The notes beneath the pieces were generated by a model. It did no database searches and was not told the DNA's origin. It saw only the letters and a program-made list of their open reading frames with translations. The translations under genes and the position numbers were made by a program. This document shows positions 9,106 through 57,034 of a stretch of 64,000 nt of DNA, piece after piece; position 1 is the stretch's first letter; each line of letters begins with the position of its first letter. This DNA is from an uncultured Candidatus Saccharibacteria bacterium (GTDB lineage Bacteria; Patescibacteriota; Minisyncoccia; Phycocordibacterales; UBA9973), in the NCBI GenBank assembly GCA_964496425.1, contig CAZBZO010000005.1, forward strand, positions 10,015-74,014, in the 5' to 3' direction.

Positions 9106-10881
9106 ATGGAATCTAAAGTAGAAACAACCAAAACAGAACATTTTTCTTGGCTCGATGTGCCGAAGGCGATTTGGTATTTTCTTGATAAAGATAAAGCGAA
9201 ATTTGGCGTTTTCTTTTTTATTTTACTCGGTATTTTTTTCTACGATCTCGTACCTGTATATATTGTAGGAAAGATCGTTGATTTTTTTACTGCGTATACA
9301 CCAGGGCAATCTCTCAATTTGTTCTACTTCTATTCCTTTTTTGTTGGCTCTACGTGGATACTTGCCGCAATAATTCGCAATTATGCAAAAAATAGAATAA
9401 TGAGAATAGGTCAACATGCTCGATCAAATGCACGGATATGGGGGTTTGAGCGTCTTACAGAATTTTCACTTGAATGGCACAACAAGGAAAATACTGGCAA
9501 TAAACTTCAGCGAATTTTCACGGGCTCAGATGCGATTTACGAATTGATGAAAATAATACGAAGCAGATTGTTAAAAATTGCTTCAAGTATCGTGGGGGTA
9601 TTGGCGGTTTTCGTTTTTACAGATATAAAATTTGTCGTGCTAGTTTTTATATATAGTGCTGTATATTTATATGCTGAGTTTATTATCAGTAAGAGAATTT
9701 TTAGATTGAGTAATGAATTTAATACTCTAAATCAGTCAGCAAGTGGAACATACATGGAAAGTGCAGGCAACATACTCTCAGTGAAAGCGCTCGGTGGAGA
9801 GAGCGGTATCGTCAATCGTGTAATGAATAGAGAAATTCTTTCGAGGAACATTTCTATAAAAAAACTCAATGCGAACAGTTTTAAATGGCGAGTCTTAAAC
9901 GTTATTAGCGGCGCTGCGATCGGAGTATTCTTATTAATGACAGGATTTTCTGTACTTTCATCAGCGTTGACTTTAGGAATGGTTCTTGTGTTTTACACTT
10001 ATTTCTCAAAACTCGGTGAATCATTGGCAGATATGAGCGATTTACATTCTGACATGCTAGACGTGCGGTCAAATTTGGCACATATGATGCCGATATTTCG
10101 TGAGACGGAATTTATTAAAACCGGTAATGAAAGTTTCCCAGAATATTGGAATGCGATCAAGATAAATAACATTTCGATGGATTATGGATCAGGCCAGCAT
10201 GGACTCAAGGATTTTAGTTTAGAAATCGCACGTAATTCTAAAGTGGGCATTGCTGGGACCTCCGGCTCGGGTAAGTCGACGCTTGCGAAAATTATTTTGG
10301 GACTCTATAAAATCAAATCGGGTGGAATTCATGTAGGTGAGAGGGATTATTATGATATTTCCCACAACGACATGCTCGATCATATTACTGTTGTCCTCCA
10401 AGAAACCGAGCTTTTTAATCTTTCACTTCGCGAAAACATTACTATGATGCGGACCGAAAATAGCGAGCTTTTAAATCGTGCTGTAGAAATCTCCGAGCTC
10501 GGCGCGGTGATCGACCGTTTGCCTGAAGGTCTCGATGCCAAAATCGGGGAGAAGGGCTACATGCTCTCCGGCGGCGAACGCCAACGCCTCGGTATTGCTC
10601 GAGCGATTTATAAAAATGCCCCGATTATTCTCCTTGACGAAGCCACCTCAGCGCTTGATAGTGAGACTGAAGGCAAGATCATGGCAAAGCTTTTGGGTGA
10701 GTATGGCAAGGATAAGACATTTGTTATTATTGCTCACAGGCTAGGTACATTACGCTACACGGACCGCATTGCCGTGGTAGCCGATGGCAGCGTGGTGGAA
10801 GAGGGGAATTACACCGAACTCATGAGTAAACCGAAGTCATATTTTTCTCGGATGAATCAAGAGAAAAGTCAGAATATATGA
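9106..10881 (+). CDS. ABC transporter, fused permease/ATPase (type-I exporter half-transporter)
   Basis: N-terminal 6-TM domain, Walker A GTSGSGKST, signature LSGGERQRLGIARA, Walker B ILLDEATSALD. No C39 peptidase domain. Confidence 0.9.
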   Translation: MESKVETTKTEHFSWLDVPKAIWYFLDKDKAKFGVFFFILLGIFFYDLVPVYIVGKIVDFFTAYTPGQSLNLFYFYSFFVGSTWILAAIIRNYAKNRIMRIGQHARSNARIWGFERLTEFSLEWHNKENTGNKLQRIFTGSDAIYELMKIIRSRLLKIASSIVGVLAVFVFTDIKFVVLVFIYSAVYLYAEFIISKRIFRLSNEFNTLNQSASGTYMESAGNILSVKALGGESGIVNRVMNREILSRNISIKKLNANSFKWRVLNVISGAAIGVFLLMTGFSVLSSALTLGMVLVFYTYFSKLGESLADMSDLHSDMLDVRSNLAHMMPIFRETEFIKTGNESFPEYWNAIKINNISMDYGSGQHGLKDFSLEIARNSKVGIAGTSGSGKSTLAKIILGLYKIKSGGIHVGERDYYDISHNDMLDHITVVLQETELFNLSLRENITMMRTENSELLNRAVEISELGAVIDRLPEGLDAKIGEKGYMLSGGERQRLGIARAIYKNAPIILLDEATSALDSETEGKIMAKLLGEYGKDKTFVIIAHRLGTLRYTDRIAVVADGSVVEEGNYTELMSKPKSYFSRMNQEKSQNI

Positions 10882-12590
10882 AGAAAGAAACGAAACAATG
10901 TAAGAATTGCGCAAAAGATTTCACTATAGAGTCGGATGACTTTGATTTTTATGAAAAGGTAAAGGTTCCGCCGCCAACGTTTTGTCCGGAGTGTCGCATG
11001 ATCCGCAGATTTCAGCTTCGCAACGAACGCACCTGGCATCGTCGTGTCTGTGATGCGACTGGCAAACCTCTGCTTTCTATGTTTGCATCTGATGTGCCAT
11101 ACAAAGTCTATGAGCTCAATTATTGGAAGAGTGATGCCTGGGATCCGATGGAATATGGGCACGTCTATGACTCGTCGCGCTCCTTTTTTGCCCAATTCGA
11201 CGAGCTCATGCGTGCGGTGCCGCATGCCAACTTGATTCAGAAAAACAACGCCAATAGTGACTATTCAAATGCGACGCTCAATGCCAAGAATTGTTACTAT
11301 TGTTCAAGTCTTGATACGGGGGAGGATTGCAGTTATTGCTTTACTGGCAACATTCGTATAAAAAATTGCCTTGACCTGCATCAATCTATCGATGACGAAT
11401 TCTCGTATGAGCTTGTGGATTGCCTCAAATGCAACCGGCTTTTATTTGGACAAAATTGCGAAGGATGCGTAGATTCGATGTTTTTGTATGATTGTCGCAA
11501 CTGCACCAATTGTTTCGGTTGTGTGGGACTTCGCAATAAACAGTACTGTATATGGAATGAGCAGCATTCGCGTGAGGACTATCTTGAGCAAATGAAACAG
11601 CTGCGAGCGGGAAGCTATCAGACTCTACTCGCGGCTAAAGAAAAATTTGAAGAACTGAAGCTCCGGGTGCCGCGAAAATTTGCTGTCATTCAAAAAGCTG
11701 AGAATGTTTCCGGTGACGATATTTTAAATGCTCGCAACTGCCACCAATGCTTCGTCGTGCGAAATAGCGTAGAGAACTTAAAGTACTGCTATCGTGTCTG
11801 GGAAAACTCTAAAGATATTTGGGATGGGTTTGTGGCCTGGCGTGGATCAGAAATGATGTACGAAGTAGTGAGCTGTACTGGTCAGCGTATTTATTTCTCC
11901 GCCTATATTTGGGGCGGCAATGACATTTTTTATTCGTACAATTGTTTCGATTGCAACAATATCTTTGGCTGTGTCGGTCTCCGAAGCAAATCGTACTGCA
12001 TTTTTAATACCCAATACTCGAAAGAAGAGTATGAAGTATTGATAGCGCAAATCATTGAAAAAATGAAAATAGATGGTGAGTACGGAGAATTTTTCCCTGC
12101 AAGCATTTCGCCCTTCGCGTACAATGAAACAGTAGCACAGGATTATTTTCCCAAAATCAAAGATGATGCACAGGCGAGTGGGTATCGATGGCGAGACGCG
12201 GAAGAAAAAAACTACAATGTTACGATGAAAAGCGAGGCGATCCCAGACGGTATCGCCGAAGCAAGCGACGATATTTTAAAAGAAGTGATCGAATGCGCAC
12301 ACCAAGGAGTATGTAGCGAACAATGCGCGACGGCGTTTCGTCTTACCTCTGACGAGCTCGTTTTTTACCGTACCATGAAACTTCCACTCCCACGACTCTG
12401 TCCGTCATGTCGCCACTATGGTCGGGTCAAGCTCAAAAATCCGCTTCGGCTTTGGAATCGCACCTGTACGTGCGAGCGGGATACTCATACTCACTCGGGA
12501 CCTTGTTCCAATACATTTCAAACGCCGTATTCACCGGAGCGCTCGGAGATGATATATTGCGAAGAATGTTACAATGCGGAAATAGTTTAA
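10878..12590 (+). CDS. Cysteine-rich protein, paralogue B (same architecture as 7353-9104)
   Basis: 570 aa. MKKETKQCKNCAKDFTIESDDFDFYEKVKVPPPTFCPEC matches the paralogue A N-terminus. 4-nt overlap with the ABC gene stop. Confidence 0.8.
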   Translation: MKKETKQCKNCAKDFTIESDDFDFYEKVKVPPPTFCPECRMIRRFQLRNERTWHRRVCDATGKPLLSMFASDVPYKVYELNYWKSDAWDPMEYGHVYDSSRSFFAQFDELMRAVPHANLIQKNNANSDYSNATLNAKNCYYCSSLDTGEDCSYCFTGNIRIKNCLDLHQSIDDEFSYELVDCLKCNRLLFGQNCEGCVDSMFLYDCRNCTNCFGCVGLRNKQYCIWNEQHSREDYLEQMKQLRAGSYQTLLAAKEKFEELKLRVPRKFAVIQKAENVSGDDILNARNCHQCFVVRNSVENLKYCYRVWENSKDIWDGFVAWRGSEMMYEVVSCTGQRIYFSAYIWGGNDIFYSYNCFDCNNIFGCVGLRSKSYCIFNTQYSKEEYEVLIAQIIEKMKIDGEYGEFFPASISPFAYNETVAQDYFPKIKDDAQASGYRWRDAEEKNYNVTMKSEAIPDGIAEASDDILKEVIECAHQGVCSEQCATAFRLTSDELVFYRTMKLPLPRLCPSCRHYGRVKLKNPLRLWNRTCTCERDTHTHSGPCSNTFQTPYSPERSEMIYCEECYNAEIV

Positions 12591-12605
12591 ATAGTAAGTA
12601 GAAAA

Positions 12606-14906: not shown

Positions 14907-15266
14907 TCAGAATTTAATCTGATCTAAGCCGATTAAACCTGCAACTGTACCACCATTTTTGAGAAAGTAGTATCCCATCATTACCAATGCCAACAAAACT
15001 CCAGAAAGCCATCCGTCAAGGAATTCTTTCGTTTGCATAAATTTTGGGATTATTCTTTCGGAGAAACGTTCCAGTTTATTTCTGAAAATAATAAATAGAA
15101 TTGCTAACCCAATGATTCCCCAAAGCCAATACCAAAGTATTCCAATTTGAAACATTTTGTAATAGAGGGGAATGATTGCCAAAGTAGTTACTCCCATGAA
15201 TACTGGTGTTAATAATCCGGTTGACCATCCCAGAAAACGATTGCGGAATTGAATTGCAGTGATCAT
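14907..15266 (-). CDS. Small integral membrane protein, hypothetical
   Basis: 119 aa with 3-4 predicted TM helices. No recognisable family. Confidence 0.5.
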   Translation of the reverse strand: MITAIQFRNRFLGWSTGLLTPVFMGVTTLAIIPLYYKMFQIGILWYWLWGIIGLAILFIIFRNKLERFSERIIPKFMQTKEFLDGWLSGVLLALVMMGYYFLKNGGTVAGLIGLDQIKF

Positions 15267-15447
15267 GATTGTTGATTTTTGAGTTTAGAAATTAGTTTGT
15301 GAAAAGCTCTGTTTACCACAGGGGATAGACAAGGCTTTTCACAAACCGACTCAAAACTAATTTTTGTCAGAGAACAGTTATTAATAGTAATTATAGCAAA
15401 AATATCCTTATTTGTCAAGGATAAAAAACCTTGTATTTAAATGGTTT

Positions 15448-16158: not shown

Positions 16159-16307
16159 CAGATTAGTATAAACATTATTGGAGAAGTCACAAGTATGGGG
16201 TATAAATAGGGAGTTTGGAATTACAAATTAGTAATTACTAATTACAAATTGAAATAATAACTACTAGGACGAGTATTCATTTGTAATTTTTAATTCAGCA
16301 TTATTTT

Positions 16308-17502: not shown

Positions 17503-17592
17503 TTTTTTAAATTATTTTTTCGATATTAACACTAAATTTTAAATAAGTCAAATTTTCTACTATTTTAAATTTAGTTGTGTTACTATTCCGGC

Positions 17593-18879
17593 ATGAATGA
17601 AAAGCTTACGGTTTTGCTCGTAGGAGGGGGAGGTAGGGAGCATGCGCTCGCCAAAAAAATCTCCGAATCCCCACGACTCGGTAAGCTCTATATTGCTCCT
17701 GGGAACCCTGGCACTGCCACCCTAGGCGAAAATATTCCTATCAAGGCCACAGCTCTCAATGAGCTTGGCGACTTTGCAGAACAAAATCATGTTGATCTCA
17801 CTATTGTCGGCCCCGACGATCCGCTTGCGGAAGGTATCGTCGATCTCTTTAAAGCTCGCGGACTTCGAATATTTGGCCCAGAAAAAAGTGCAGCAAAACT
17901 TGAAAGTTCAAAAGCTTTTGCTAAAGACTTCATGAATGCCCATGCCATACCGACAGCATCGTTTGAAGTGTTCAATGAATACGATAAAGCTCGTGCCTAT
18001 ATCGAAACGCAGATTTTCCCGCTGGTGGTGAAAGCCAGTGGTTTGGCACTTGGCAAAGGCGTCTTCATTTGCAAAACACTCGAGGTGGCTGAAGAGGCAC
18101 TCAAAAAAATAATGATTGACCAGGCATTTGGAGAAGCTGGAAGTCAGGTAGTGATCGAAGAATATTTGGACGGTATGGAAATTTCTACGCATGCATTTTG
18201 TGACGGTAAAACATTTCGCATGTTTCCAACCTCGCAAGATCATAAGCGAGTACTGGACGGTGATCAAGGTGAAAATACTGGTGGTATGGGTACGATCGCA
18301 CCGCTTCCGTTTGTAAGTGACGCTGAAATCGAAATTATCGCTGAAAGTGTTGTTCGACCTACTCTCGCAGGTATGAAAGAAGTAGGGGCGCTGTATACCG
18401 GTGTGCTGTATCCTGGGCTGATGATGACTACCCGTGGCCCGCGCGTACTTGAATTCAACGCTCGCTTCGGTGATCCAGAAACACAAGTCTATATGCGGCT
18501 TTTGAAGACTGATATTTTAGATATTGTCGATGCGTGTATAGATGGTACGCTTTCTGAGGTTGCTATTGAATGGTATCCAGGTTTTGCTGCCTGTCTGGTC
18601 CTTGCATCAGGCGGCTATCCAGGAGTGTATGCAAAAGGAAAAAAAATTACCGGTATTTCGAAAGCGGAAGCATTACCGGAAGTGGTGGTGTTTCATGCTG
18701 GGACGAGTATGGAAAAAGGCAAACTTGTTACTTCAGGCGGTCGCGTGCTTGGAGTCACCGCTGTAGCTGATACACTAGAAGAAGCCTTGGCGCGAGCGTA
18801 TCAAGCAGCAGCGCTCATACATTTTGACGACATGCAGTACCGGAGAGATATAGGGAAACGGGCTTTGGACAGTAAGTAG
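17593..18879 (+). CDS. purD: Phosphoribosylamine--glycine ligase
   Basis: LTVLLVGGGGREHALAKK N-terminus and ATP-grasp domain. Start chosen at MNEKL (17593). Confidence 0.92.
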   Translation: MNEKLTVLLVGGGGREHALAKKISESPRLGKLYIAPGNPGTATLGENIPIKATALNELGDFAEQNHVDLTIVGPDDPLAEGIVDLFKARGLRIFGPEKSAAKLESSKAFAKDFMNAHAIPTASFEVFNEYDKARAYIETQIFPLVVKASGLALGKGVFICKTLEVAEEALKKIMIDQAFGEAGSQVVIEEYLDGMEISTHAFCDGKTFRMFPTSQDHKRVLDGDQGENTGGMGTIAPLPFVSDAEIEIIAESVVRPTLAGMKEVGALYTGVLYPGLMMTTRGPRVLEFNARFGDPETQVYMRLLKTDILDIVDACIDGTLSEVAIEWYPGFAACLVLASGGYPGVYAKGKKITGISKAEALPEVVVFHAGTSMEKGKLVTSGGRVLGVTAVADTLEEALARAYQAAALIHFDDMQYRRDIGKRALDSK

Positions 18880-18934
18880 TGAGTAGTAAATAGTAAGTAG
18901 GGGCGCAAATTTCTAATAGTAAACTTAGAAAAGA

Positions 18935-20173
18935 ATGAAAATAATTTTTTACGAAACAAAAAAAGTACAAAATCTCTGGCCGATCGTAGCTACTCGGCCG
19001 GCTTCAGAAATATTTTGCGGTGGCGCGACGCTTTGCGATCTAGTCGGCCGGCAATTTCCTAAAATTTCACCCTCGTTTATCGTTCGTCCATATCTTGAGT
19101 CTCTTGCGTACGAACGCCATCCACGCTCGGCTCGAATAGGTAAAATTGACGATGATGTATTATTTTTAAATACAGCCATGGTGCCTGATATCAGCCTATT
19201 TGTAGAGCTTGCTCGTTCTTTCAAGGGGAAAAGTGTACGGTTTGTAAATGGCTCTCAAGTGATCGGTGCTTACCTCACAAAAAAAGATGCATTGGCAGTG
19301 TCGGAGAAGCTGGAGAAGCTTACGTTTGGCACAGTTGAACGCACTATCAAAAGTCTAGACCTACTCGAACGCAAAACTGACGCCCGTCTTTTTGAGTTTG
19401 GGTATCAAGTCGTGTCAGAAAATCAGCAGATACTTTCTTCCAATATTTCAATTCTCAAAAAAGGTCTTCGTGAATCTCGCCGCGGAGTGTATGTCGGCAA
19501 AAATGTCCGCGTCGCACAAAACGTATTCTTTGATACAAAGCATGGGCAGATTATTCTTGAAGAAAATGTTGTAGTAAAACCATTTGCGTATTTGAAAGGC
19601 CCGATCTATGTCGGACGTGATTCAGTCATCAATGAATTTTCAAGTATCAAAGAATATACGGCACTTGGGCCGGTATGTAAAGTTGGTGGTGAAATCGAAG
19701 CCTCTGTGATTCAAGGCTATTCCAACAAACAACACTACGGCGGACTTTTTCATAGCTATGTCGGCCGCTGGGTCAATATGGGTGCTGGTACTAATACGTC
19801 GAATTTAAAAAATACCTATGGCACGGTGCGGGTCCTCGGTGAGGATACCGGGGAACAATTCTTCGGCGCCATCATCGCTGACTATGTGAAGACAGCTATT
19901 AACACTGCTATTTATACAGGGAAAGTGATTGGCCCCTCTGCGCACATCTATGGAGCAGTGACGTCTGATGTTCCGGGTTTTGCAAGCTATGTGTCGGTCG
20001 GCTCGCAGTACGAGCTACCACTGCCGCTTGCAGAGAAGATTCAGAAAGCTATGGCGAAACGAAGAGACATCCCATATAATCAAACAGATGAAAAGTTACT
20101 TCTTCATCTGTTTAATGAAACAGCAACGGATCGTAAAAATGCTAAAGTCAAAAAAGGGAAGTTGCAATTCTGA
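18935..20173 (+). CDS. Putative sugar nucleotidyltransferase with C-terminal left-handed beta-helix (GlmU-like alternative family)
   Basis: N-terminus MKIIFYE..LWPIVATRPASEI and long hexapeptide-repeat region (VGKNVRV..VVVKPFAYLKGPIYVGRDSVI..). Confidence 0.5.
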   Translation: MKIIFYETKKVQNLWPIVATRPASEIFCGGATLCDLVGRQFPKISPSFIVRPYLESLAYERHPRSARIGKIDDDVLFLNTAMVPDISLFVELARSFKGKSVRFVNGSQVIGAYLTKKDALAVSEKLEKLTFGTVERTIKSLDLLERKTDARLFEFGYQVVSENQQILSSNISILKKGLRESRRGVYVGKNVRVAQNVFFDTKHGQIILEENVVVKPFAYLKGPIYVGRDSVINEFSSIKEYTALGPVCKVGGEIEASVIQGYSNKQHYGGLFHSYVGRWVNMGAGTNTSNLKNTYGTVRVLGEDTGEQFFGAIIADYVKTAINTAIYTGKVIGPSAHIYGAVTSDVPGFASYVSVGSQYELPLPLAEKIQKAMAKRRDIPYNQTDEKLLLHLFNETATDRKNAKVKKGKLQF

Positions 20174-20214
20174 TAAACTCTAAAAACTAAACTCTAAGCT
20201 CTAAATAAGTTCAA

Positions 20215-20577
20215 ATGATAGAAGATCAAAACACGCAAAAGAAATACGATCTTGATGAGCGAACTTTTATTTTTGCGAAAGATGTGAGAGAGTTTGCTAG
20301 AACATTACCAAGAGATATATATGTTATAGATGACATAAAACAGTTTATTCGATCCTCAGGATCAGTCGGGGCAAATTATATTGAAGCAAGCGAAGCATTC
20401 AGTAAGAAAGATTTTTTAATGAGAATAAAAATTTGTCGAAAAGAAGCAAAAGAAACTTGTTATTGGCTGAAACTCCTAGAGATCACAGATGCTTCACTTT
20501 CGAATAATCGTGATAGATTATTACAAGAAGCAACTGAGCTTATGAAAATTTTTGGTTCAATCGTTTCAAAAAGTTGA
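20215..20577 (+). CDS. Four-helix-bundle protein of the 23S rRNA intervening-sequence protein family
   Basis: 120 aa. Characteristic SGSVGANYIEA..SKKDFLMRIKICRKEAKETCYWLKLL pattern. Confidence 0.75.
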   Translation: MIEDQNTQKKYDLDERTFIFAKDVREFARTLPRDIYVIDDIKQFIRSSGSVGANYIEASEAFSKKDFLMRIKICRKEAKETCYWLKLLEITDASLSNNRDRLLQEATELMKIFGSIVSKS

Positions 20578-20635
20578 GTTTTGAATTTAGTATTTATTAG
20601 GGTGTAGAGTTTAGTATTTAGAGCTTATAAAATTT

Positions 20636-21580
20636 ATGTCAAAAATTCTTATTATGGGCGCGTGCGGACAAATCGGAGTCGAGCTCACACTTGCACTTCG
20701 AAAAATTCACGGCGGTGAAAATGTGTTAGCTATCGATATTCGCGAAGAGCATCCGCTCTTGGTAGGCACTGGACCGTATGGCAAACTCGATGCCATGGAT
20801 GCCGAAGCGACACGTGCGCTCGTAAAAAAAGAAGGCATTACCGAAATATATCTCCTCGCTGCGCTGCTTTCTGCGACAGGGGAGAAAGACCCGAAGCTTG
20901 CGTGGGATCTCAATATGGGAAGTTTGCGACAAATCCTTGAGCTCGGGGTGGAAGAAAAATTGAAAATATTCTGGCCAAGTTCCATCGCTATTTTTGGTCC
21001 CACAACGCCGCGCGACAATACTCCACAGAAAACTATTATTGAACCATCGACCATGTACGGTATCACTAAGTACGCTGGTGAGCTTTTGTGTCAGTATTAC
21101 AATCGGCGTTGGGGACTTGATGTGCGAAGCGTGCGATACCCAGGGCTTATCAGCTGGAAAACTCCACCAGGCGGCGGCACGACCGACTATGCTGTGGAAA
21201 TATTTTACGAAGCCATCCAAAATGGAAAATACAGTTGTTTCCTTTCAGAAAATACCTATCTACCGATGATGTATATGGATGATGCCATCCGGGCGACGAT
21301 CGAGCTTATGCAAGCACCGGCGGAAAAGATACACACACATATGTCCTACAATCTCTCTGCGATTAGCTTTTCACCGAAAGAGGTAGCTCTGGAAATAAAA
21401 AAAGATATTCCAAATTTTGAAATATCGTATGCGCCCGACCATCGCCAAGCTATTGCCGACTCTTGGCCTGCGTCAATCGATGACAGTGTGGCGCGCGCCG
21501 AATGGGGCTGGAAGCCGGAGTACGATCTTCCAAAAATGACCGCGGATATGCTCGCGCATTTGAAAGAAAAATTAAGATAA
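20636..21580 (+). CDS. tdh: NAD-dependent epimerase/dehydratase-fold L-threonine 3-dehydrogenase (GalE-like TDH)
   Basis: ILIMGACGQIGVELTLALR Rossmann start and YGITKYAGE catalytic YxxxK. Lies in the same insert as a kbl homologue (about 1.9 kb downstream, opposite-strand genes in between). Confidence 0.65.
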   Translation: MSKILIMGACGQIGVELTLALRKIHGGENVLAIDIREEHPLLVGTGPYGKLDAMDAEATRALVKKEGITEIYLLAALLSATGEKDPKLAWDLNMGSLRQILELGVEEKLKIFWPSSIAIFGPTTPRDNTPQKTIIEPSTMYGITKYAGELLCQYYNRRWGLDVRSVRYPGLISWKTPPGGGTTDYAVEIFYEAIQNGKYSCFLSENTYLPMMYMDDAIRATIELMQAPAEKIHTHMSYNLSAISFSPKEVALEIKKDIPNFEISYAPDHRQAIADSWPASIDDSVARAEWGWKPEYDLPKMTADMLAHLKEKLR

Positions 21581-21595
21581 CTATTTTAATTGAAA

Positions 21596-21630
21596 AAGAG
21601 CAATCGATTTTGTTGATTGCTCTTTTTATT
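21596..21630. terminator. Hairpin terminator AGAGCAATC..GATTGCTCT followed by TTTTTATT
   Basis: 9-bp stem then U-run, after the tdh stop. Convergent with the minus-strand gene. Confidence 0.6.
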
Positions 21631-21645
21631 ACTTTTGCTTTTTAT

Positions 21646-22035
21646 TCATACTCCGGATAAATGCCCTTCCATAAAATCATGTTGGATCTCTTCTGCGAAA
21701 CTTATTTTTCCAAAACCGGATCGGCTGCTTAAGCTTGCATAAAAATACAGAGGTTCATTAAGCACTATTATTTGTTCTCTGAAAATAATTTCTTTGCACT
21801 TCCCAGTAAAAATCATTGTGAAGTGCTCCTTCTTCGACCAAGTCGAATTTTGTGTAAAAATTTTTAAAGTGATTTCCTGGGAGAGGGTAAGATCAAAAAT
21901 TTGATCACCGCCCACATACTGGAAACCACGTTGGAGTTCCTGTAGGCTTTCACGAGTGTTGGTGTGTGCGAAATCCATGATAATTGTTTTTACAGCAGCT
22001 CCGAGAGCCTGATGAATGCTGAGTAAGTCTTTCAT
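21646..22035 (-). CDS. Hypothetical protein
   Basis: 129-aa ORF. No family recognised. Confidence 0.4.
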   Translation of the reverse strand: MKDLLSIHQALGAAVKTIIMDFAHTNTRESLQELQRGFQYVGGDQIFDLTLSQEITLKIFTQNSTWSKKEHFTMIFTGKCKEIIFREQIIVLNEPLYFYASLSSRSGFGKISFAEEIQHDFMEGHLSGV

Positions 22036-22115
22036 AGTGGAGTAGTTTTTAAATTGTTTATATTATAATAACACTAAAATTTATTATAGTCAAATTTGAT
22101 ATAAAAAAATATGCC

Positions 22116-22141
22116 CACCGGTTGATTCCAGTGGGCGGTTG
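22116..22141 (-). terminator. Hairpin GCCCACCGG-TTGATT-CCAGTGGGC followed by a T-run on the minus strand
   Basis: 8-bp stem including a G-U pair. The minus-strand RNA is followed by AUAUUUUUUUAUAUC. Downstream of the 22156-22749 gene. Confidence 0.55.
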
Positions 22142-22155
22142 CAAAATAAGATTTA

Positions 22156-22749
22156 TCATGCGGTATTTTTGATTGCTGAAAGATTTTTTTTCTTGTCTGG
22201 AAAGAATGATTCCTTACTGAAAACCTTGCTGGCATTTGTGCCTGGTTTTGTGACAGTAATTTCTTTTCCCCCATCACTGATTTTGTTACTGATTTTGCAA
22301 GAATAACCAAGTTTCTTGAGTCCTTCTTCAAAAGCCGTAAGAGCGTTTTCATTGCCAATACATTTTTTTTCCAGCTCATTAATTGTAGTCCAAAAATCTT
22401 TTTGTGGTGTAACAGAATCTGGTTTCGTAATCGGTGGATCAATATTTACAGGCAGTGCTTGCTCAAGAGATGGTTGAGCTAATGCGGTAACTTTCTTCAG
22501 CTCGGAAAATCGTTTTACGACTTCTTCCACGACGGTATCCAGACGAGTACCCAGTTGCTCCCAATCTTTTGGGTTTTTTATCTTAAAACAATAAAGGTAA
22601 ATTGCCCCGGCAACTATAAATATGAGGCCCATTCCCATAAAGTCCATGTAATGGAGAAATAAGCCGGTGAATGAAGCTATTAGACCAATAATCATTATGA
22701 CTACGGGTACTACGGTAAAGATGAGCAAATCAAGTTTGTTTTTCTTCAT
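22156..22749 (-). CDS. Membrane protein, hypothetical (N-terminal 2 TM helices plus soluble domain)
   Basis: 197 aa. Hydrophobic N-terminus, charged C-terminal domain. Confidence 0.5.
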   Translation of the reverse strand: MKKNKLDLLIFTVVPVVIMIIGLIASFTGLFLHYMDFMGMGLIFIVAGAIYLYCFKIKNPKDWEQLGTRLDTVVEEVVKRFSELKKVTALAQPSLEQALPVNIDPPITKPDSVTPQKDFWTTINELEKKCIGNENALTAFEEGLKKLGYSCKISNKISDGGKEITVTKPGTNASKVFSKESFFPDKKKNLSAIKNTA

Positions 22750-22870
22750 ATGTTCGGATTTTGAAAGGTTTAGAATTTTGCTTACAATACCAACAATTTA
22801 CGTTATAGTCAAATTTTTTTTGAGATTGCAAGTACCTATTAAAAAGAAAGGTGAGTTTAAAAAAAATTAG

Positions 22871-22898
22871 CCCGACGGTTGATCCGACGGGCTTTTTC
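22871..22898. terminator. Bidirectional hairpin GCCCGACGG-TTGATC-CGACGGGC flanked by A-run and T-run
   Basis: Stem-loop with T-run on plus and, via upstream AAAAAAAA, on minus. Downstream of the minus gene 22922-23413. Confidence 0.55.
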
Positions 22899-22921
22899 AT
22901 ATAAATACCTTTTGATTTACT

Positions 22922-23413
22922 TTACTGAAGATTTGCAAAGACCTCTTTTGCCCGGGTAAAATAAGATTCGGGTAGTGTTTTACTTTTACCCCAAATATCT
23001 TTTCCGTATGACCAATATAAGCCAGTGAACCTGTCTTCATCAACGGTTATCAACTTTCCGGTCTGGTCAACGATGTATGTACAGATCTTTTCATTTCTGT
23101 CATTGTATTCGTGAATAAATAATAACTTGTGCTTTCGGAAGCCTTTTGTATATTTCTCTACATACATCTGAAAAGCAACATGACAATCCTCACTGATCTG
23201 GATATAGTTGACCTTTATACGGAAGCGTTTGTCACCATAGATTTTCGTTACATACTGCACTTTTTGGCCTGATCCGCAGTTGCAGATATTATTGTTCTGG
23301 AATTGCTTTATTATTTTGCAGACCTGGTCTGCTGTGGTGATTTGGAAGCTTTCCTGTGCAACAACTACGTGAGAGACGAGGGTCGCAAAAAAGACTATAA
23401 ATAACTTTTTCAT
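22922..23413 (-). CDS. Secreted Cys-containing hypothetical protein (signal peptide)
   Basis: MKKLFIVFFATLVSHVVVAQ signal peptide. Track ORF extends to 23437. Confidence 0.5.
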   Translation of the reverse strand: MKKLFIVFFATLVSHVVVAQESFQITTADQVCKIIKQFQNNNICNCGSGQKVQYVTKIYGDKRFRIKVNYIQISEDCHVAFQMYVEKYTKGFRKHKLLFIHEYNDRNEKICTYIVDQTGKLITVDEDRFTGLYWSYGKDIWGKSKTLPESYFTRAKEVFANLQ

Positions 23414-23516
23414 TTTCAAGGAGGGCATTTGAGACACCTCGGGAGAATTTAATCATAAAATTTGTTTACTGTCAAGGCATTTCGATTTAAACTTTATTCT
23501 GTTAAAGTTAGCACAT

Positions 23517-24740
23517 ATGTATTCGTCTGAATTTATTAAGAATATTGAAAAAGAGCTTGAAGCTTTGAAGCAAGCAGGGAAGCTCAAGGTAGAGAGGGAG
23601 CTTGCAAGTGCGCAGGGGCCGGAGGTGGAGCTTGCTGGAAAACCTGTGCTTATGTTTGCTTCAAATAATTATCTTGGTTTGGGAAACCATCCAGAAATCC
23701 TTGCGGCAGCTGAAAAGGGAATGAAAGAATATGGCTACGGTTTAAGCTCGGTGCGCTTTCTTTCTGGCACCCAGACGATTCACCGACAGCTTGAGCAAAA
23801 GCTCGCCGCGTTTCTCGGTACCGAAGATGTGATACTCTACTCGACCAATTTCATGGCCAACCTCGGCTTCTTTGCGAGCATCGTAAATGAAGGAATGGGA
23901 AGCACAGAGTGGAAAGATGTGATCTACAGTGACGAGCTCAATCATGCGTCCATCATCGATGCCTTCAAACTTTGTAAAAAAGAAAATCTTGAGAAACGGA
24001 TTTACAAACACGGAAATCTCGAGGAACTTGAGAATTTTTTGAAAGCAGATGAAGCTAGTAATTATAGAAATAAAATTATTGTGACTGATGGTATTTTTAG
24101 TATGGAGGGAAGTATGGCTGATCTGCCAAAGCTTGTAGAGCTCGCGGAAAAATATCAAGCACTTCTATTTGTCGACGACGCACACGCTGTCGGCGTGCTC
24201 GGAGCAACCGGTGCTGGTACTCCCGAGCGTCTCGGAGTGAAGGGAAAAATTGATGTGTATTCGGGTACCTTCGGCAAAGCGCTCGGTGGGGCAGTCGGTG
24301 GCTATATTGCCGGGAAAAAATCTCTCACTGAATTTCTCCGCCAAAAATCCCGCACCTATATGTTTTCAAATACCGTGCCGCCATCTGTTGTCATTGCTTC
24401 TATGAAAGCGCTCGACATGCTCCGCGAAAAACCAGAATTACTCAAGAATCTGAAAGATAACAGTGCGTATTTTCGAGAAAAAGTTGCAGCGCTCGGATTT
24501 ACTCTGATCCCAGGCGAGCATGCCATTGTGCCTATCATGCTCGGTGATGCCAAAGTGGCACAGGATATGAGCCGAGCATTACTTGCCGAGGGACTCTATG
24601 TGGTGGGACTATGGTTTCCGGTGGTCCCAGAAGGATCGGCACGCCTTCGCTTCCAAATATCTGCTGCGCATACCAAAGAGCATCTTGATCGTGCGATCTC
24701 TATACTTGGAAAAATCGGAAAGGAAATGAAAATTATTTAG
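23517..24740 (+). CDS. kbl: 2-amino-3-ketobutyrate CoA ligase (glycine C-acetyltransferase), class-II PLP aminotransferase
   Basis: 407 aa. SNNYLGL, DELNHASIIDA, DDAHAVGVLG, and the PLP-lysine region TFGKALGG. Confidence 0.85.
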   Translation: MYSSEFIKNIEKELEALKQAGKLKVERELASAQGPEVELAGKPVLMFASNNYLGLGNHPEILAAAEKGMKEYGYGLSSVRFLSGTQTIHRQLEQKLAAFLGTEDVILYSTNFMANLGFFASIVNEGMGSTEWKDVIYSDELNHASIIDAFKLCKKENLEKRIYKHGNLEELENFLKADEASNYRNKIIVTDGIFSMEGSMADLPKLVELAEKYQALLFVDDAHAVGVLGATGAGTPERLGVKGKIDVYSGTFGKALGGAVGGYIAGKKSLTEFLRQKSRTYMFSNTVPPSVVIASMKALDMLREKPELLKNLKDNSAYFREKVAALGFTLIPGEHAIVPIMLGDAKVAQDMSRALLAEGLYVVGLWFPVVPEGSARLRFQISAAHTKEHLDRAISILGKIGKEMKII

Positions 24741-24776
24741 CATTCTCTATTTACTATTTACTACTAACTATTTACT

Positions 24777-25901
24777 ATGCAAAAAATCGGCATTGTCGGC
24801 GGAGGACAACTTGGGCGTATGCTTGTTGAAGCTGCAGATCAGCTTCACTTTGAGACGATTGTCCTTGATCCGACACCACGCGCTCCTGCTGGGCAGGTTG
24901 CAACCGAGCAGATCATAAAAAGTTTCAAAGATCCTGAAGCGATTCGTGAGCTCGCCGATCGCGTGGATTTTCTGACCTTTGAAATTGAGCAAGTGCATGC
25001 CGAAGTGCTGGAAGAGATTGCAAATGATGGCAAGCCGGTCAATCCATCGCCTTCCACATTGAAAATAATCAAAGACAAATTTGAACAGAAAGCGTTTTTG
25101 CAAAACGCTGATATTCCGGTGACAGATTTTGCATTGATCGAAACCAAGCACGATGTCTGGGAGCAAGCCAAAATCTTCGGCTACCCATTTCTTTTGAAAG
25201 CTCGTTTTGATGCCTACGATGGTCGCGGCAATGCGCTCATCAAAAGCGAAGACCAAATCGATTTTGCGTACGAGCATCTTTCCAAAAGCCCACTCTATGT
25301 TGAGCGGTTTGTACCGTTTGTCAAAGAGCTCTCGGCGGTGGTGGTGCGCGGAATGGACGGCGATATAAGATCATATCCGATCGTTGAGACGATTCATCGC
25401 AACAACATTTGCCATGAAGTCTTTGCGCCTGCACCTGTGGCAGAAGATGTGCGTGAGCGTGCTGAAGCACTTGGTCGCCAAACTCTGGAGCATTTGGGTG
25501 GAGTAGGAGTGTATGCGATAGAAATGTTTCTCACAGAAAATGGAAAAATCTTGGTCAATGAAATCGCGCCGCGCGTCCACAACTCGGGCCATCATACGAT
25601 TGAAGCCTGCGCCACGAGCCAATTTGAAAATCATATCCGTGCTATCACAAGCATGCCGCTTGGGAGTACTGATATGATAGTACCGAGGGCGGTGATGGTG
25701 AATATTTTGGGGGATCGGAGTGGGGAAGTAAAGCCTGAAGGTATAGAAGAGGCCGAAGCTTTGGGTGGAGTGGCAGTGCACATGTATGGTAAGATGGAAA
25801 CGCGACCGGAGCGGAAAATGGGGCATATTACAGCTATTGGGAGTACTCTCGAAGAAGTTCAAGCCAAGGCGCGGAAGGCGAGGAGTTTGATTACAATTTA
25901 G
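24777..25901 (+). CDS. purK: N5-carboxyaminoimidazole ribonucleotide synthase
   Basis: MQKIGIVGGGQLGRM ATP-grasp N-terminus. 374 aa. Confidence 0.9.
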   Translation: MQKIGIVGGGQLGRMLVEAADQLHFETIVLDPTPRAPAGQVATEQIIKSFKDPEAIRELADRVDFLTFEIEQVHAEVLEEIANDGKPVNPSPSTLKIIKDKFEQKAFLQNADIPVTDFALIETKHDVWEQAKIFGYPFLLKARFDAYDGRGNALIKSEDQIDFAYEHLSKSPLYVERFVPFVKELSAVVVRGMDGDIRSYPIVETIHRNNICHEVFAPAPVAEDVRERAEALGRQTLEHLGGVGVYAIEMFLTENGKILVNEIAPRVHNSGHHTIEACATSQFENHIRAITSMPLGSTDMIVPRAVMVNILGDRSGEVKPEGIEEAEALGGVAVHMYGKMETRPERKMGHITAIGSTLEEVQAKARKARSLITI

Positions 25902-26053
25902 TTTATTTTTTGGTACTTATCTTTGTGAGTCGCATAAATTTCTGCTGAAATTTTGCTCCCTCTCGACTCGTCGGGCCTATCGGTATTGATAGGCACCTGT
26001 AGACGGCCTGCAAGAGACTCCCAAAGACAAGTACCCAGAGTGTAAAGATTCAA

Positions 26054-39948: not shown

Positions 39949-41790
39949 ATGACATTTCTAATTATTTCATTTATTGCTGGCATACTAACCGTGCTTGCGC
40001 CGTGTATTTTGCCGCTTCTGCCGGTGATTGTCGGCGGCTCGATCGTCGAAGGTGAAAACAAACATAAGTCCTTTGTTATTATCGGAGCACTTATGCTCTC
40101 TATTATTATTTTTACTCTCATCCTTAAGTGGAGTACAACTTTTATCAACGTGCCACAGTATGTCTGGACACTTATTTCCGGTTCCATTTTGATTCTTTTT
40201 GCAATCTCCATGATTTTTCCCGGACTCTGGGAACGACTTCCGTTCACAAGCGTCCTTTCATTGAAAAGTAACAAATTACTCGGTACGGGGTATCAGAAAA
40301 AGAGTCTCTGGGGCGATATTATTATGGGTGCGGCGCTCGGGCCAGTCTTCTCATCATGTAGCCCGACTTATTTTGTCATTCTCGCTACAGTCTTGCCACA
40401 GAGTTTTAGTAAAGGATTGCTCTATCTCCTCGCGTATGCTCTGGGGCTTGGACTTTCACTTTTGATAATTGTATTTGTCGGACAGAAAATTATTGGGCGC
40501 ATCGGTGCAGTGTCGGATCCACGAAGTATTTTTAAGCGTTCGATCGGAATCTTATTTCTTTTAGTTGGTATCGCAATTCTTACAGGCTATGACAAAAAAA
40601 TAGAAGAGAAGCTTTTGAATGGAACATTTGATATTACCAAAATTGAAACTAAGCTTTTGCAACAAGCCGATAAAACCACATCACTACTTTCGGACCCTTT
40701 GCCTCCTACAACACAGAGTGTCTCAGAAGATATGCCAGATATACTTGCAGAGGCTTTACCCACTGCCTCAGGTATGCCAACTGCGAAGCAATTTATGACC
40801 CTCATCGACAAAGCAAAAAAATATCCACAGTATACAGAAATTACCAATCCATCTGGATTTGTAAATACAGACGGTTTACCGATTACGATTGCGGAGCATG
40901 TCGGTCGCGAAGTTATTATGATTGATTTTATGACGTATAGCTGTATTAATTGTAAGCGAACATTTCCATACTTAAATACGTGGTATGAAAAGTATCAGGA
41001 TGACGGTTTTCTGATTATCGGCATTCATACACCAGAATTCGCTTTTGAAAAGAACATTGGCAATGTAACTGACGCTATGGCTGACGCAGGGATTATGTTT
41101 CCGATCGTGCTTGATAATGACTACGGCACATGGAATGCGTATAAAAATAGTTACTGGCCACGCAAATATCTCATTGATATTGATGGCTATGTGGTCTACG
41201 ATCATATTGGTGAAGGGGAGTATGAAAAGACTGAAGCAAAAATTGTAGAATTATTAGCTGAGCGAGCAGTGCGGCTCGGTATGACGGCTCCTCAAAATGA
41301 AAACGGCAGCGATACGATCACTCCTGTATCAATTCTCACGAGTAGTCCCGAAACCTATCTCGGAAGTGCGAGGCAGGGTAATTTTGTAAATGAAAATACT
41401 GCTAGTGGTTGCAAAGCTGGTGCATGCATATACACCCTTCCCGCAACTATTCCCCAAAACAGTTTTGCGTTAGGCGGCACATGGAGTGCGTCGGACGAAT
41501 TTATGACATTAACAAGTCCAAGCGGAAGCATCCAATATCACTTCATTGCTTCAAAAGTATACCTAGTGGCTTCCAATAGTAGTGGGCCTGTTGATGCTGA
41601 TATATTAATTGATGGGCGTCCAATAGCCGAAGGTGAAAAAGGAAGCGATGTGGATGCACAAGGCCATATACGTATCGATGGGGCCAATCTATACAACATT
41701 GCTGATTTTGGAGGAACGATGGCTGAACATACGATTGAAATCCGCGCTAATAATGCGGGGCTTGAAGCCTACACTTTTACATTTGGTTAG
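39949..41790 (+). CDS. DipZ-like fusion: CcdA/DsbD transmembrane domain + thioredoxin-fold (CxxC) domain + C-terminal beta-rich domain
   Basis: LAPCILP CcdA motif, TM array, thioredoxin-like YSCINCKRTFP, extra C-terminal domain. Confidence 0.75.
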   Translation: MTFLIISFIAGILTVLAPCILPLLPVIVGGSIVEGENKHKSFVIIGALMLSIIIFTLILKWSTTFINVPQYVWTLISGSILILFAISMIFPGLWERLPFTSVLSLKSNKLLGTGYQKKSLWGDIIMGAALGPVFSSCSPTYFVILATVLPQSFSKGLLYLLAYALGLGLSLLIIVFVGQKIIGRIGAVSDPRSIFKRSIGILFLLVGIAILTGYDKKIEEKLLNGTFDITKIETKLLQQADKTTSLLSDPLPPTTQSVSEDMPDILAEALPTASGMPTAKQFMTLIDKAKKYPQYTEITNPSGFVNTDGLPITIAEHVGREVIMIDFMTYSCINCKRTFPYLNTWYEKYQDDGFLIIGIHTPEFAFEKNIGNVTDAMADAGIMFPIVLDNDYGTWNAYKNSYWPRKYLIDIDGYVVYDHIGEGEYEKTEAKIVELLAERAVRLGMTAPQNENGSDTITPVSILTSSPETYLGSARQGNFVNENTASGCKAGACIYTLPATIPQNSFALGGTWSASDEFMTLTSPSGSIQYHFIASKVYLVASNSSGPVDADILIDGRPIAEGEKGSDVDAQGHIRIDGANLYNIADFGGTMAEHTIEIRANNAGLEAYTFTFG

Positions 41791-42394
41791 TATTTCTCCA
41801 TGGTCCCCAAAGATTGATATGGAAATATATCGCACCCAGGCGTAGTGCGTACGCTGCTAGTAGAATTCCATACAATACGAAAGGATTTTTAAGATACGAC
41901 GAAAAAATGACATACAGTAGTCCTAAAAATATTGCAGGTGAGGCATAAAAATCTTTATAAAAAATCTGGGGAGTTTCGGCAATTGCAATGTCACGTAAAA
42001 GACCTCCACCAACTGCGCTTACTGTTGCGAGGAATATTATCGCAATTGATCCAAGGCCCGCAACATGAGCTGCTGATGCACCAATAAGGGCAAATGTTAC
42101 TAAACCGAGCGCATCTATAGCGAGCGCAAAACGATTGATTTTAGAAAATACTGGATACAAAATAATCGCTAAAAAGGTGCCACATAATATAGCAATGCAG
42201 TACGACATATCATAAAAATACTGCGGTGTGTGGCCGAGCAATATTTCTCGGATGGTCCCGCCGCCTACAGCGGTGAGGAATGCAACGATAAAAATACCAA
42301 AGATATCAAATTTTCTTTGAATGCCAATATAGGCGCCATAGAAAGCGAACGTAATCGTGCCGAGGAGGTCGAGAAGATAAATTTCAAAACCCAT
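41777..42394 (-). CDS. UPF0126/TRIC-like membrane protein (duplicated GGGxxRD motif)
   Basis: AVGGGTIREILLG and AVGGGLLRDIAIA repeats in a 7-TM protein. Confidence 0.7.
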   Translation of the reverse strand: MGFEIYLLDLLGTITFAFYGAYIGIQRKFDIFGIFIVAFLTAVGGGTIREILLGHTPQYFYDMSYCIAILCGTFLAIILYPVFSKINRFALAIDALGLVTFALIGASAAHVAGLGSIAIIFLATVSAVGGGLLRDIAIAETPQIFYKDFYASPAIFLGLLYVIFSSYLKNPFVLYGILLAAYALRLGAIYFHINLWGPWRNTNQM

Positions 42395-53436: not shown

Positions 53437-53838
53437 TTATACTTTCTTGATAATATAATTATTTCCGTCTGAATAACCCTCGATCACTTTCACTTCTTCT
53501 TCGTCAAAATATTCTATGGCATTAGAAGCTATGGCTTTTTCAAATAGTATCTTTGAGTAGAGCGGGGGAGCATTATCTGCTCGAGATAGAGTGATGTGAG
53601 GGTATGTATTCTTTGATTTCGAGTTCTCGACAAGTAGGTCATCTCCCCATTCATCATACGCACGTCCGATTATTTTTATACTATATTCTTTTCCTATTTC
53701 TATTCCATCTAAACTATGTGGTTCAAATTCGATTGTCGAATGATGTCCAAAAATTTTCTCGTGTTTAGGAGGGAATCTTTTCAATAAATCCTCTCTGTCT
53801 TTTACAAAGAGAGCGGTAAATTTTATTCCTTTCTCCAT
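53437..53838 (-). CDS. Putative 2H-phosphoesterase (LigT-like) family protein
   Basis: Two HxTx motifs (HSTI and HITL) about 60 aa apart in a 133-aa protein. Confidence 0.4.
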   Translation of the reverse strand: MEKGIKFTALFVKDREDLLKRFPPKHEKIFGHHSTIEFEPHSLDGIEIGKEYSIKIIGRAYDEWGDDLLVENSKSKNTYPHITLSRADNAPPLYSKILFEKAIASNAIEYFDEEEVKVIEGYSDGNNYIIKKV

Positions 53839-54386
53839 ATTTTATATTATACACAAAAATAATTTAGGTTCGAACTTCCTAAGGAGGCAAGTTTAGAATT
53901 CATAAAAGAAAAAATCCACCTAGTAGTAGATTTTTTTCTACCACGAAGTGGATTAGTTTTTATTGATTCATCCAGTAGGAAATTTTTCCCCACCAGGTCA
54001 ATTCTGATCTATGTTTTTTCCAAAGGAAATCCAGTAGCCCCAGAATTGAATTGACTTTCGTTTCGGGCATTACTTTTTCGCCCGTTGACAAGGTTAAATT
54101 CATTAACTCACCTGTCTGTTTCGACCAGGTGGCTTGTGATTTGTAGTCAGCAAACATGTTCATTTTTGGTTATTTTATTGTGAGTAAAAATTATTTATTA
54201 AGTTCTCTCAATCTCCATAAAGAAACTGGGAGAACCTAATAAAAACTAACAATAAAATCCAAATATCAAAGAACTACACAACTCTTTACATTATAGCATA
54301 ATAGGACCTATTTGTCAAATGTTGCTCCGAACTTGGGATGATGCTCGAAAGAGTATTCTAGAGATAAAATAAGATCAATAAAGTAT

Positions 54387-54815: not shown

Positions 54816-54972
54816 AATTTAAGGGTAGCAAATTAAAGGAGTTTGATAAAGCGGTTGATTTGGCTCCGAACTTGGGATGAAGTTCGAAATGCAATTTTGA
54901 ATAATTAAACAAAAGAAAATCCGCAGTCTTGATAACTACGGATTTATTCTAGAGAATTAATTCTTCTGTCTT

Positions 54973-56871: not shown

Positions 56872-57034
56872 AACGAGCTACCTGCCTCGACTTGCTGGCG
56901 CAAGCCCAGACAAGGCGGGCCGCGGAATACTATTCTTTCACTTGCAGAACCCACGAATCGTAACAAAAATAGCCTTAAAATGCAATTTGTGCTATTTCCG
57001 ATGACTTACCGTAATTTGCTATACTAGGGGCACT

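Follow-up and report, generated by a model that had tools for sequence, protein, structure and literature searches.

The closest described counterparts of the locus treated here are the kbl-tdh operon of Escherichia coli and the L-threonine 3-dehydrogenase (TDH) of the short-chain dehydrogenase/reductase (SDR) type from Flavobacterium frigidimaris (PDB 2yy7), which represent the same enzymes, TDH and 2-amino-3-ketobutyrate coenzyme A ligase (KBL), and the same chemistry, with genes that are normally adjacent. Threonine serves trypanosomes, and likewise mouse embryonic stem cells, as a source of glycine, one-carbon units and acetyl-CoA, and Patescibacteria (also referred to as the Candidate Phyla Radiation, CPR) are thought to be host-dependent for most building blocks, purine synthesis of their own being unusual. 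The present work concerns a stretch of 64,000 nucleotides (the window) from an uncultured Candidatus Saccharibacteria bacterium (assembly GCA_964496425.1, contig CAZBZO010000005.1), in which tdh and kbl lie, together with a GlmU-like gene, in a block between purD and purK. The original prediction took this block for a 5.9-kb insert bounded by inverted repeats of about 20 nt. In our judgement, with a probability of roughly 0.7, the segment is a native, conserved metabolic module of Patescibacteria inside a large purine cluster, and not a transposon-like insert.

Compared with the E. coli operon, the pair is here placed in a purine operon, joined to a GlmU-like gene and split by 1.9 kb of antisense open reading frames (ORFs), while the Patescibacteria relatives add glmS and some of them use a TDH of the zinc alcohol dehydrogenase (Zn-ADH) type at the same position. 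As in mouse and trypanosomes, TDH and KBL would feed the synthesis of purines and the supply of acetyl groups and not plain catabolism; those cases rest on physiology, whereas ours is built on the gene neighbourhood of uncultured bacteria.

Concerning the repeats, cyanobacterial short tandemly repeated repetitive (STRR) sequences are intergenic heptanucleotide arrays with several unit families per genome. The arrays in the window are likewise intergenic tandem 7-nt units enriched over other periods, but they occur in another phylum, have other units, are often found as an inverted pair with a gene between the two, and adjoin start and stop codons. Composite transposons and miniature inverted-repeat transposable elements (MITEs) also have two inverted copies, which here flank a multi-gene segment; unlike them, the block has no transposase, no target-site duplication and no second copy, its arms are low-complexity tandem arrays and its cargo is native. 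Finally, the 23S rRNA of Coxiella burnetii contains an intervening sequence (IVS) with an S23p ORF and terminal inverted repeats that are cut by RNase III, and the stem of this IVS has heptameric repeats in tandem, in numbers that differ from strain to strain (PMC4990558).

The threonine module and its neighbours

The window is mostly a purine supercluster, in the order guaB, purA, purL, purQ, purF, purN, purD, the block, purK, purE, purM, purC, purB and purH, with three ORFs, one of them an ABC protein, between purL and purQ. The earlier gene calls (purD, GlmU-like, four-helix-bundle, SDR-type TDH, KBL and purK) hold by profile and PDB matches, as collected in Table 1. For the GlmU-like protein the TIGR03991 match spans 1-394 of 394, PF13562 and Hexapep also match, and the C-terminal half resembles the acetyltransferase domain of PDB 5z09/2ggo; its substrate is unproven, since TIGR03991 is only a "hypothetical equivalog" model. 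The tdh product aligns over its full length and displays the GACGQIG (NAD) and YGITK (YxxxK) motifs, and its strong PDB matches are all TDHs. KBL lies marginally under the cutoff of TIGR01822 (489.7 bits, cutoff 493), scores far under the cutoffs of the BioF, SPT and ALAS models, and carries the pyridoxal phosphate (PLP) lysine motif TFGKA as well as DDAH. Both enzymes of the pair named in the original prediction are therefore real by these profile and PDB matches, and tdh and kbl together are, as judged from their sequences, a pathway that turns threonine into glycine plus acetyl-CoA.

The survey of the kbl neighbourhood took in 56 foreign loci whose KBL is 55% identical or more, and which form 47 clusters at 90% KBL identity; L-numbers are the labels of foreign loci used for comparison. 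TDH is encoded immediately upstream of kbl in 31 of the 38 loci with enough sequence, 19 of the SDR type and 12 of the Zn-ADH type. The best NCBIfam match of the latter is L-threonine 3-dehydrogenase at 252 bits, under the cutoff of 380, and their best PDB matches are all Zn-dependent L-threonine 3-dehydrogenases. Of 31 loci, 21 have an acetyltransferase: 9 are small GNATs and 12 are left-handed beta-helix (LbH) proteins that correspond to the acetyltransferase half of TIGR03991 and have no nucleotidyltransferase domain. The gene that precedes tdh codes for this half alone in most relatives. glmS is found within about 6 kb of kbl in 26/35 (that of L177 scores 752 bits on TIGR01135), and purL, purE or purK follows kbl directly in 17/43. 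The commonest layout is glmS-(TDH, acetyltransferase)-kbl-purL-orf-purQ-purF-purN-purD, and tdh and kbl are adjacent and co-directional in most other relatives. It was also observed that glmS, TDH and the acetyltransferase precede kbl in most Patescibacteria relatives (L084-L131, L177 and L178; an example is L177 6583-11224).

The dehydrogenase and acetyltransferase positions show non-orthologous displacement, and the most constant partners of the module are glmS and the acetyltransferase. Enzymes that are not homologous but belong to one activity class fill two of the positions while the neighbours stay constant, and this is a strong sign of functional linkage. The linkage of tdh-kbl with pur genes in many Patescibacteria loci, and at different positions (purL, purE, purK), favours metabolic coupling. 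The idea that the module is coupled to the glycine supply of PurD is thus supported and, given the recurrent pur, glmS and acetyltransferase linkage, would extend to acetyl-CoA and the hexosamine pathway.

In the mechanism that we propose, TDH would oxidise L-threonine to 2-amino-3-ketobutyrate, which KBL would split with CoA into glycine and acetyl-CoA. The glycine would feed the adjacent PurD, if flux runs in this direction, and the acetyl-CoA would serve the co-located GlmU-like acetyltransferase, which may N-acetylate a cell-wall amino sugar. In the relatives, acetyl-CoA would N-acetylate the glucosamine phosphate made by GlmS. The window represents a variant with a full GlmU-like protein and with the module adjoining purD itself. 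That both KBL products are used locally would be the simplest reading of the gene neighbourhood.

All the named top KBL homologues are from Patescibacteria (Nomurabacteria, Paceibacterota or Minisyncoccia), and the best purD matches are Patescibacteria metagenome-assembled genomes at about 60% identity. Neither glmS nor a Zn-type TDH nor a GNAT was found when looked for in the window; among the annotated window ORFs there were no serine hydroxymethyltransferase (SHMT) or glycine-cleavage genes, in a scan that reached about 45 kb and did not take in the ORFs further on. A protein of the PF03458 "Gly_transporter" family is encoded on the minus strand at 41777-42394, 17 kb downstream of the block.

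In a literature search on tdh-kbl within pur operons only a 2026 preprint on co-enrichment was found, in which tdh, kbl and de novo purine synthesis are co-enriched in a Saccharimonadia genus, with no mention of linkage (bioRxiv 10.64898/2026.09.16.751625). The TDH-KBL pathway itself is known; its embedding in a purine and hexosamine neighbourhood is a new form of something known. This neighbourhood, recurrent in dozens of lineages, ties threonine cleavage to purine synthesis through glycine and, by way of glmS and an acetyltransferase that would use acetyl-CoA, to amino-sugar acetylation. The linkage outlasts enzyme replacement, which suggests that imported threonine is a key precursor of nucleotides and cell wall alike in these organisms.

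Composition and relatives of the block

The GC and codon profile, proposed earlier as a check on the insert, gives a divided answer: the glmU-like gene, tdh and kbl are native-like, with GC/GC3 (GC at third codon positions) of 0.438/0.400, 0.475/0.473 and 0.461/0.446, respectively, next to a GC of 0.44-0.50 in the pur genes, and only the four-helix-bundle (4HB) gene (0.325/0.223) and the small ORFs (GC 0.355-0.39) deviate. A foreign island was considered and rejected, the core genes being pur-like in GC/GC3 and the named KBL homologues all from Patescibacteria.

The sole close relative available, L140 (89-92% identical in nucleotides and 96-97% in amino acids of purD, glmU-like, tdh and kbl), shows the order purN-purD-array-glmU-tdh-...-kbl, where the array is the same as the left array of the window and is kept with 2 substitutions. 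The L140 sequence ends inside kbl, so the comparison covers purN through kbl; the purK cluster at 90% identity holds only one 1-residue variant. L140 is without the 4HB cassette and without hyp137, an antisense ORF between purN and purD, and the antisense ORFs that it has between tdh and kbl are not the same set as in the window. The genes that vary with respect to L140 are exactly the low-GC ones. Close relatives thus differ by indels of small units dropped into spacers, namely the 4HB cassette and these antisense ORFs, of which the latter are also what splits tdh from kbl. Over the block region the Logan contigs L081-L083, three more from this organism, match the window at 100% identity and are for this reason uninformative on strain variation in array copy number.

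In more distant relatives the block-free arrangement exists. L175/L176 (GCA_023267375.1) have purL-orf-purQ-purF-purN-purD, about 500 nt, and then purK-purE-purM-purC-purB, collinear with the window at 58% (purD) and 64% (purK) protein identity and without the block, which is accordingly extra relative to that lineage. Their purD-purK spacer of about 500 nt contains a 56-aa ORF and a terminator-like hairpin and no heptamer array. purD is directly followed by purE in four other relatives, and no arrays were found in the purD-purK or purD-purE spacers of L001, L004, L005, L008 and L175. The synteny comparison therefore cuts both ways for the proposed insertion: a purD-purK junction free of the block occurs in the distant L175/L176, but the close L140 keeps the gene order and the left array. 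There is no empty site in a close relative, L140 having both block and left array.

Apart from the inverted ends, the usual marks of a mobile insert were not found. The 7 ORFs include no transposase, integrase or other recombinase (Pfam, NCBIfam and PHROGs), there is no target-site duplication, as the flanks (TTTGGAC on one side, GCAAAAA on the other) share no direct repeat, and no second copy of the whole block was seen, only the short motif recurring in the window and the end motif being absent from 175 foreign loci. A transposon was rejected given no recombinase, no target duplication and native composition. Taking also the order and left array kept by L140, the earlier notion of a mobile insert is not supported, nor is that of the repeats as its ends, heptamer arrays being common to many spacers and the motif being found also at 12591 and 61894. 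The module took this position in the lineage of the window, and nothing ties that event to the arrays.

Heptamer arrays, four-helix-bundle cassettes and alternative explanations

The inverted repeat reported at the end of purD and the start of purK is present, but the earlier coordinates were off by 1-3 nt and the repeat is longer than some 20 nt. AGTAGTAAATAGTAAGTAG at 18882-18900 and CTATTTACTATTTACTACT at 24747-24765 are complementary at 18/19 positions, and the arms as a whole (18864-18900 and 24747-24783, 37 nt, 86% complementary) make up the longest inverted pair in the region (I1 of the repeat search). Both arms are heptamer tandem arrays. The left one begins within the last three codons of purD, AGT AAG TAG being its first unit, while the right one takes up the whole 36-nt spacer between kbl and purK and reaches into the ATG of purK. 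When the 48 window spacers are compared all against all, the pair ranks 3rd of 2256 comparisons (score 22.5, 99th percentile 13), and the 12-mer AGTAAATAGTAA, allowing at most 1 mismatch, has 4 copies in the window against 0.38 expected, a count reached in 0/100 shuffles. The similarity of the arms is thus beyond chance, since both the 12-mer count and the spacer-pair score exceed expectation. Three of the 4 motif copies (12591, 18871 and 24747) lie at gene boundaries inside the pur cluster, and none of the 175 foreign loci searched contains the AGTAART motif.

Other heptamer arrays occupy at least 5 further spacers of the window. At a scan threshold of 16 of 21 matches, with other periods and shuffles as controls (at 18 of 21 nothing is detected), the window has 5 period-7 arrays, against 0-1 for periods 5, 6 and 8-13 and 0.27 in shuffles; period 14, which is twice 7, also gives 5. 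The same scan of 2.13 Mb of foreign loci yields 102 arrays of period 7, where other periods give 7-58; contigs of Patescibacteria and Chloroflexi are rich in period-7 arrays, many of which come as inverted pairs. Arrays C (18871-18900), D (20174-20205) and E (20597-20635) carry stops in all three plus frames and the right array in one plus frame only, and several arrays abut the next start codon with no Shine-Dalgarno sequence visible there. Most likely, both outer arrays belong to one family of heptamer arrays, specific to this genome and located in spacers. The supposed terminal inverted repeats would then be copies of one array family, heptamer arrays in general being common spacer filler here and in many bacteria.

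The 4HB gene within the block stands between two such arrays, which are predicted to pair around the ORF, across 390 nt, in both minimum free energy (MFE) and centroid folds (z = -2.7). The cassette takes up the 462 nt (20174-20635) between the glmU-like stop and the tdh ATG, where L140 has a 26-nt spacer, and no paralogue of the gene was found in the window. Seven further homologous 4HB genes were examined (Table 1), at loci whose source names include Doudnabacteria, Patescibacteria group, Chlorobiaceae and Desulfonatronum, with proteins 60-70% identical across phyla. Inverted heptamer arrays, with the related units CTAAAYY and CGAAAYY, flank 8/8 of the 4HB genes when that of the window is included, and the flank inverted-repeat scores are 14.5-20.5, compared with 7.5 (median), 10.5 (95th percentile) and 15.5 (maximum) among 87 other genes. 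In the six loci with called neighbours on both sides the 4HB gene is co-oriented between genes of ordinary operons, at five distinct junctions (gatC-gatA, gatA-gatB, etfA-tyrS, icd-HMGL and Fic-PrgI).

The cassette resembles the Coxiella IVS in having a PF05635 ORF between stem-forming inverted repeats, heptameric repeats in the arms and polymorphism of copies and presence among strains; it differs in that it lies in the mRNA spacer between the glmU-like gene and tdh and not in a 23S rRNA helix, and its stem is a predicted one. The literature search yielded no account of heptamer-flanked 4HB cassettes outside rRNA, and only the Coxiella IVS paper was found (PMC4990558). Heptamer-armed 4HB cassettes in mRNA spacers are a new form of a known kind of element, and connect both heptamer repeats and the long-unexplained intervening sequences of 23S rRNA with a single type of small mobile unit. 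Two observations touch on this subject. A small PDDEXK_3 (PF13366) ORF of L168 (4672-5100) adjoins the 4HB cassette there and, with an elevated score of 12.5 for inverted repeats in its flanks, may represent another type of small ORF between inverted arms. In the window, the heptamer arrays at 15266-15390 and 16217-16300 each fold with an inverted partner close by into a local hairpin that encloses no ORF (fold z of -4.4 and -1.7, respectively), and may be ORF-less versions of the 4HB-type cassette.

Several results weigh against a native block whose end repeats are mere family members. Family membership alone would not predict so close a resemblance of the outer arrays, which are 27/30 identical in register (left against the reverse complement of right) with a shared variant second unit, and which are the top inverted spacer pair of the window. 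Inverted heptamer arrays do bound a demonstrably gained or lost unit, namely the 4HB cassette. The block-free purD-purK junction of L175/L176 means that relocation into this site occurred at some time, and pur linkage of kbl is seen in only the 17 of 43 loci mentioned above. All of these points but the last also favour the view that glmU-tdh-kbl was moved into the purD-purK junction by recombination or a cassette mechanism, with the inverted arrays as ends or scars. That the module sits before purL or purE in other lineages, and hence has moved, speaks for it, as do the array-flanked cassettes, one of which is an indel between close relatives, and the glmU-like gene of L137, which is itself flanked by inverted arrays. 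We nevertheless regard it as unlikely: the extra motif copies at 12591 and 61894 flank nothing in particular; the arm polarity is opposite, with outer arms purine-rich and then pyrimidine-rich where the 4HB cassettes show the reverse; recombinase and target duplication are missing from a block of native composition; the purD-purK and purD-purE spacers of L175, L001, L004, L005 and L008 have no arrays; and, the motif being absent from the 175 foreign loci, no second block with these ends is known. A broader form of this thought, in which inverted heptamer arrays are the ends of a widespread, undescribed system of operon-spacer cassettes that would be looped out of the transcript, processed like an IVS and gained or lost as a block, seems to us distinctly unlikely. 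Its candidate units may include the 4HB ORF (8/8, across phyla), the L137 glmU-like gene and possibly the whole glmU-tdh-kbl module. If it were true, the purD and purK arrays would be the surviving ends of the event that brought the threonine module into the purine operon, and the 4HB (S23p/Avd-like) proteins would be the system's own factor.

The arrays could also act at the RNA level, either as unstructured, stop-rich insulators between cistrons or as remnants of a former long-range stem that looped glmU-tdh-kbl for RNase III. The stops in all plus frames of arrays C, D and E would fit an insulator, together with the start codons that arrays abut without a visible Shine-Dalgarno sequence, but the right array has a stop in a single plus frame. 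For the stem one may cite the predicted pairing of the 4HB arms (390 nt, z = -2.7), the RNase III-cut S23p IVS of Coxiella with its heptameric stem (PMC4990558), and the adjacent, co-directional tdh and kbl of the relatives, from which it is probable that one transcript formerly held both arms. Pairing over 5.8 kb on a translated mRNA is, however, unlikely, and between the arms there are now a terminator-like hairpin and three antisense units; because of this hairpin after tdh and the antisense promoter-like sites (both from consensus scans only), the left and right outer arrays are now probably in separate transcription units. A role of this kind is very doubtful. Last, AGTAART could be a candidate binding site for a regulator of the purine cluster, in keeping with the three copies at gene boundaries there. 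Yet the fourth copy is upstream of pth, two copies come just after stop codons and not in promoter regions, other Patescibacteria do not keep the motif in their pur clusters, and heptamer arrays of unrelated units fill unrelated spacers and occur in other phyla, all of which makes an operator highly improbable. The native module with family-member arrays thus remains our preferred explanation.

Feature coordinates and further observations

The coordinates of the features are collected in Table 1. The start of purD is ambiguous (17575 or 17593), as callers on identical contigs gave 434 aa (with a TTG start) or 428 aa.

Table 1. Features of the block, its flanks and the repeats; positions are those of the window unless a foreign locus is named.
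Feature	Position	Strand	Evidence or remark
Short extra motif copy (ATAGTAAGTAG)	12591-12601	+	Directly after the stop of ORF 10878-12590
purD, phosphoribosylamine-glycine ligase (glycine-consuming step)	17575-18879	+	TIGR00877 523 bits, cutoff 288
Left heptamer tandem array, AGTAAGT x4.3	18871-18900		Tandem Repeats Finder (TRF); inverted pair I1
GlmU-like sugar-1-phosphate nucleotidylyltransferase / LbH acetyltransferase, bifunctional	18935-20173	+	TIGR03991 308 bits, cutoff 225
4HB 5' arm, heptamer array TAAACTC x4.6	20174-20205		TRF; inverted pair I2
Four-helix-bundle protein (23S rRNA intervening-sequence / S23p family)	20215-20577	+	PF05635 52 bits; TIGR02436 69.5 bits
4HB 3' arm, inverted heptamer array (TAGAGTT units), abuts tdh ATG	20597-20635		26/31 match to 5' arm
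SDR-type L-threonine 3-dehydrogenase (tdh)	20636-21580	+	442 bits to PDB 2yy7, 495 bits to 5z76
Terminator-like hairpin, 16 pairs, after tdh	21593-21627		
Hypothetical, 129 aa (hyp129), no hydrophobic segment	21646-22035	-	L140 homologue 60% identical
Hypothetical membrane protein, 197 aa (hyp197), two N-terminal transmembrane segments	22156-22749	-	L140 counterpart 37% identical
Hypothetical, 171 aa (168 from ATG), signal-peptide-like N-terminus	22922-23437	-	No L140 counterpart
KBL, 2-amino-3-ketobutyrate coenzyme A ligase (kbl)	23517-24740	+	NF005394 521 bits, cutoff 460
Right heptamer tandem array, CTATTTA x4.6	24747-24778		TRF
purK	24777-25901	+	TIGR01161 438 bits
Extra motif copy, CTATTTA x2.1	61894-61908	-	Spacer upstream of probable pth start 61933
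4HB cassette elsewhere	L104 5987-6419		
4HB cassette elsewhere	L164 2885-3544		
4HB cassette elsewhere	L165 2963-3416		
4HB cassette elsewhere	L167 2963-3462		
4HB cassette elsewhere	L168 2867-3441		
4HB cassette elsewhere	L170 2963-3401		
4HB cassette elsewhere	L173 108-657		

Regarding the copy at 61894, the longest ORF of the pth-like gene runs from 61809, and the conserved N-terminus MFTIVGLGNPG starts from the ATG at 61933, by which the CTATTTA repeat falls in the upstream spacer.

The three minus-strand ORFs between tdh and kbl had been described as secreted or membrane hypotheticals, which is apt for 22156-22749 and 22922-23437 but not for 21646-22035, where no hydrophobic segment is seen. 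None of the three has a Pfam or NCBIfam match, and PHROGs gave one marginal match, of the 197-aa ORF to a family of unknown function (E = 0.0037). Consensus scans place promoter-like and terminator-like sites at each of them. It was also observed that hyp137, hyp129 and hyp197 share a promoter-leader of the form AAATTTGACT...TTAGTGTT... (17503-17574, 22036-22110 and 22750-22830), and that terminator-like sequences are common to hyp129 and hyp197 (direct repeats D1 and D6). Such behaviour suggests that the small antisense ORFs are self-contained gene cassettes in spacers of the pur operon. Elsewhere in the window, at 53829-55473, a direct repeat of 27-43 nt, GCTCCGAACTTGGGATGATGCTCGAAA, recurs in three spacers that lie upstream of small ORFs on the minus strand; these are the spacer pairs with the highest scores in the window.

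At Rfam gathering thresholds the window contains tRNA-Asn only, so that no riboswitch accounts for the spacers, and no rRNA was found in it. A structured spacer element of about 110-140 nt, without an Rfam match, is present in the purK-purE spacer (25902-26053) and at 1943-2100, with fold z of -4.3 and -4.4, respectively. It has a long outer stem, which differs between the copies in a compensatory manner, and two hairpins, an inner one (AAATTTCTGCNGAAATTT) and one that is GC-rich; similar structured elements are seen in the glmU-tdh and tdh-kbl spacers of L116, L125, L126, L093 and L104. A GC-rich hairpin of about 36 nt, CCTGCCCGCAATGCTACGC..GCGTTGCAGGCGGGC, is located near the start of the ORF after kbl in L102 and L106 and is absent in the similar L109, L111 and L123; GC-rich hairpins resembling it occur in the window spacers 1943-2207 and 56842-57034.

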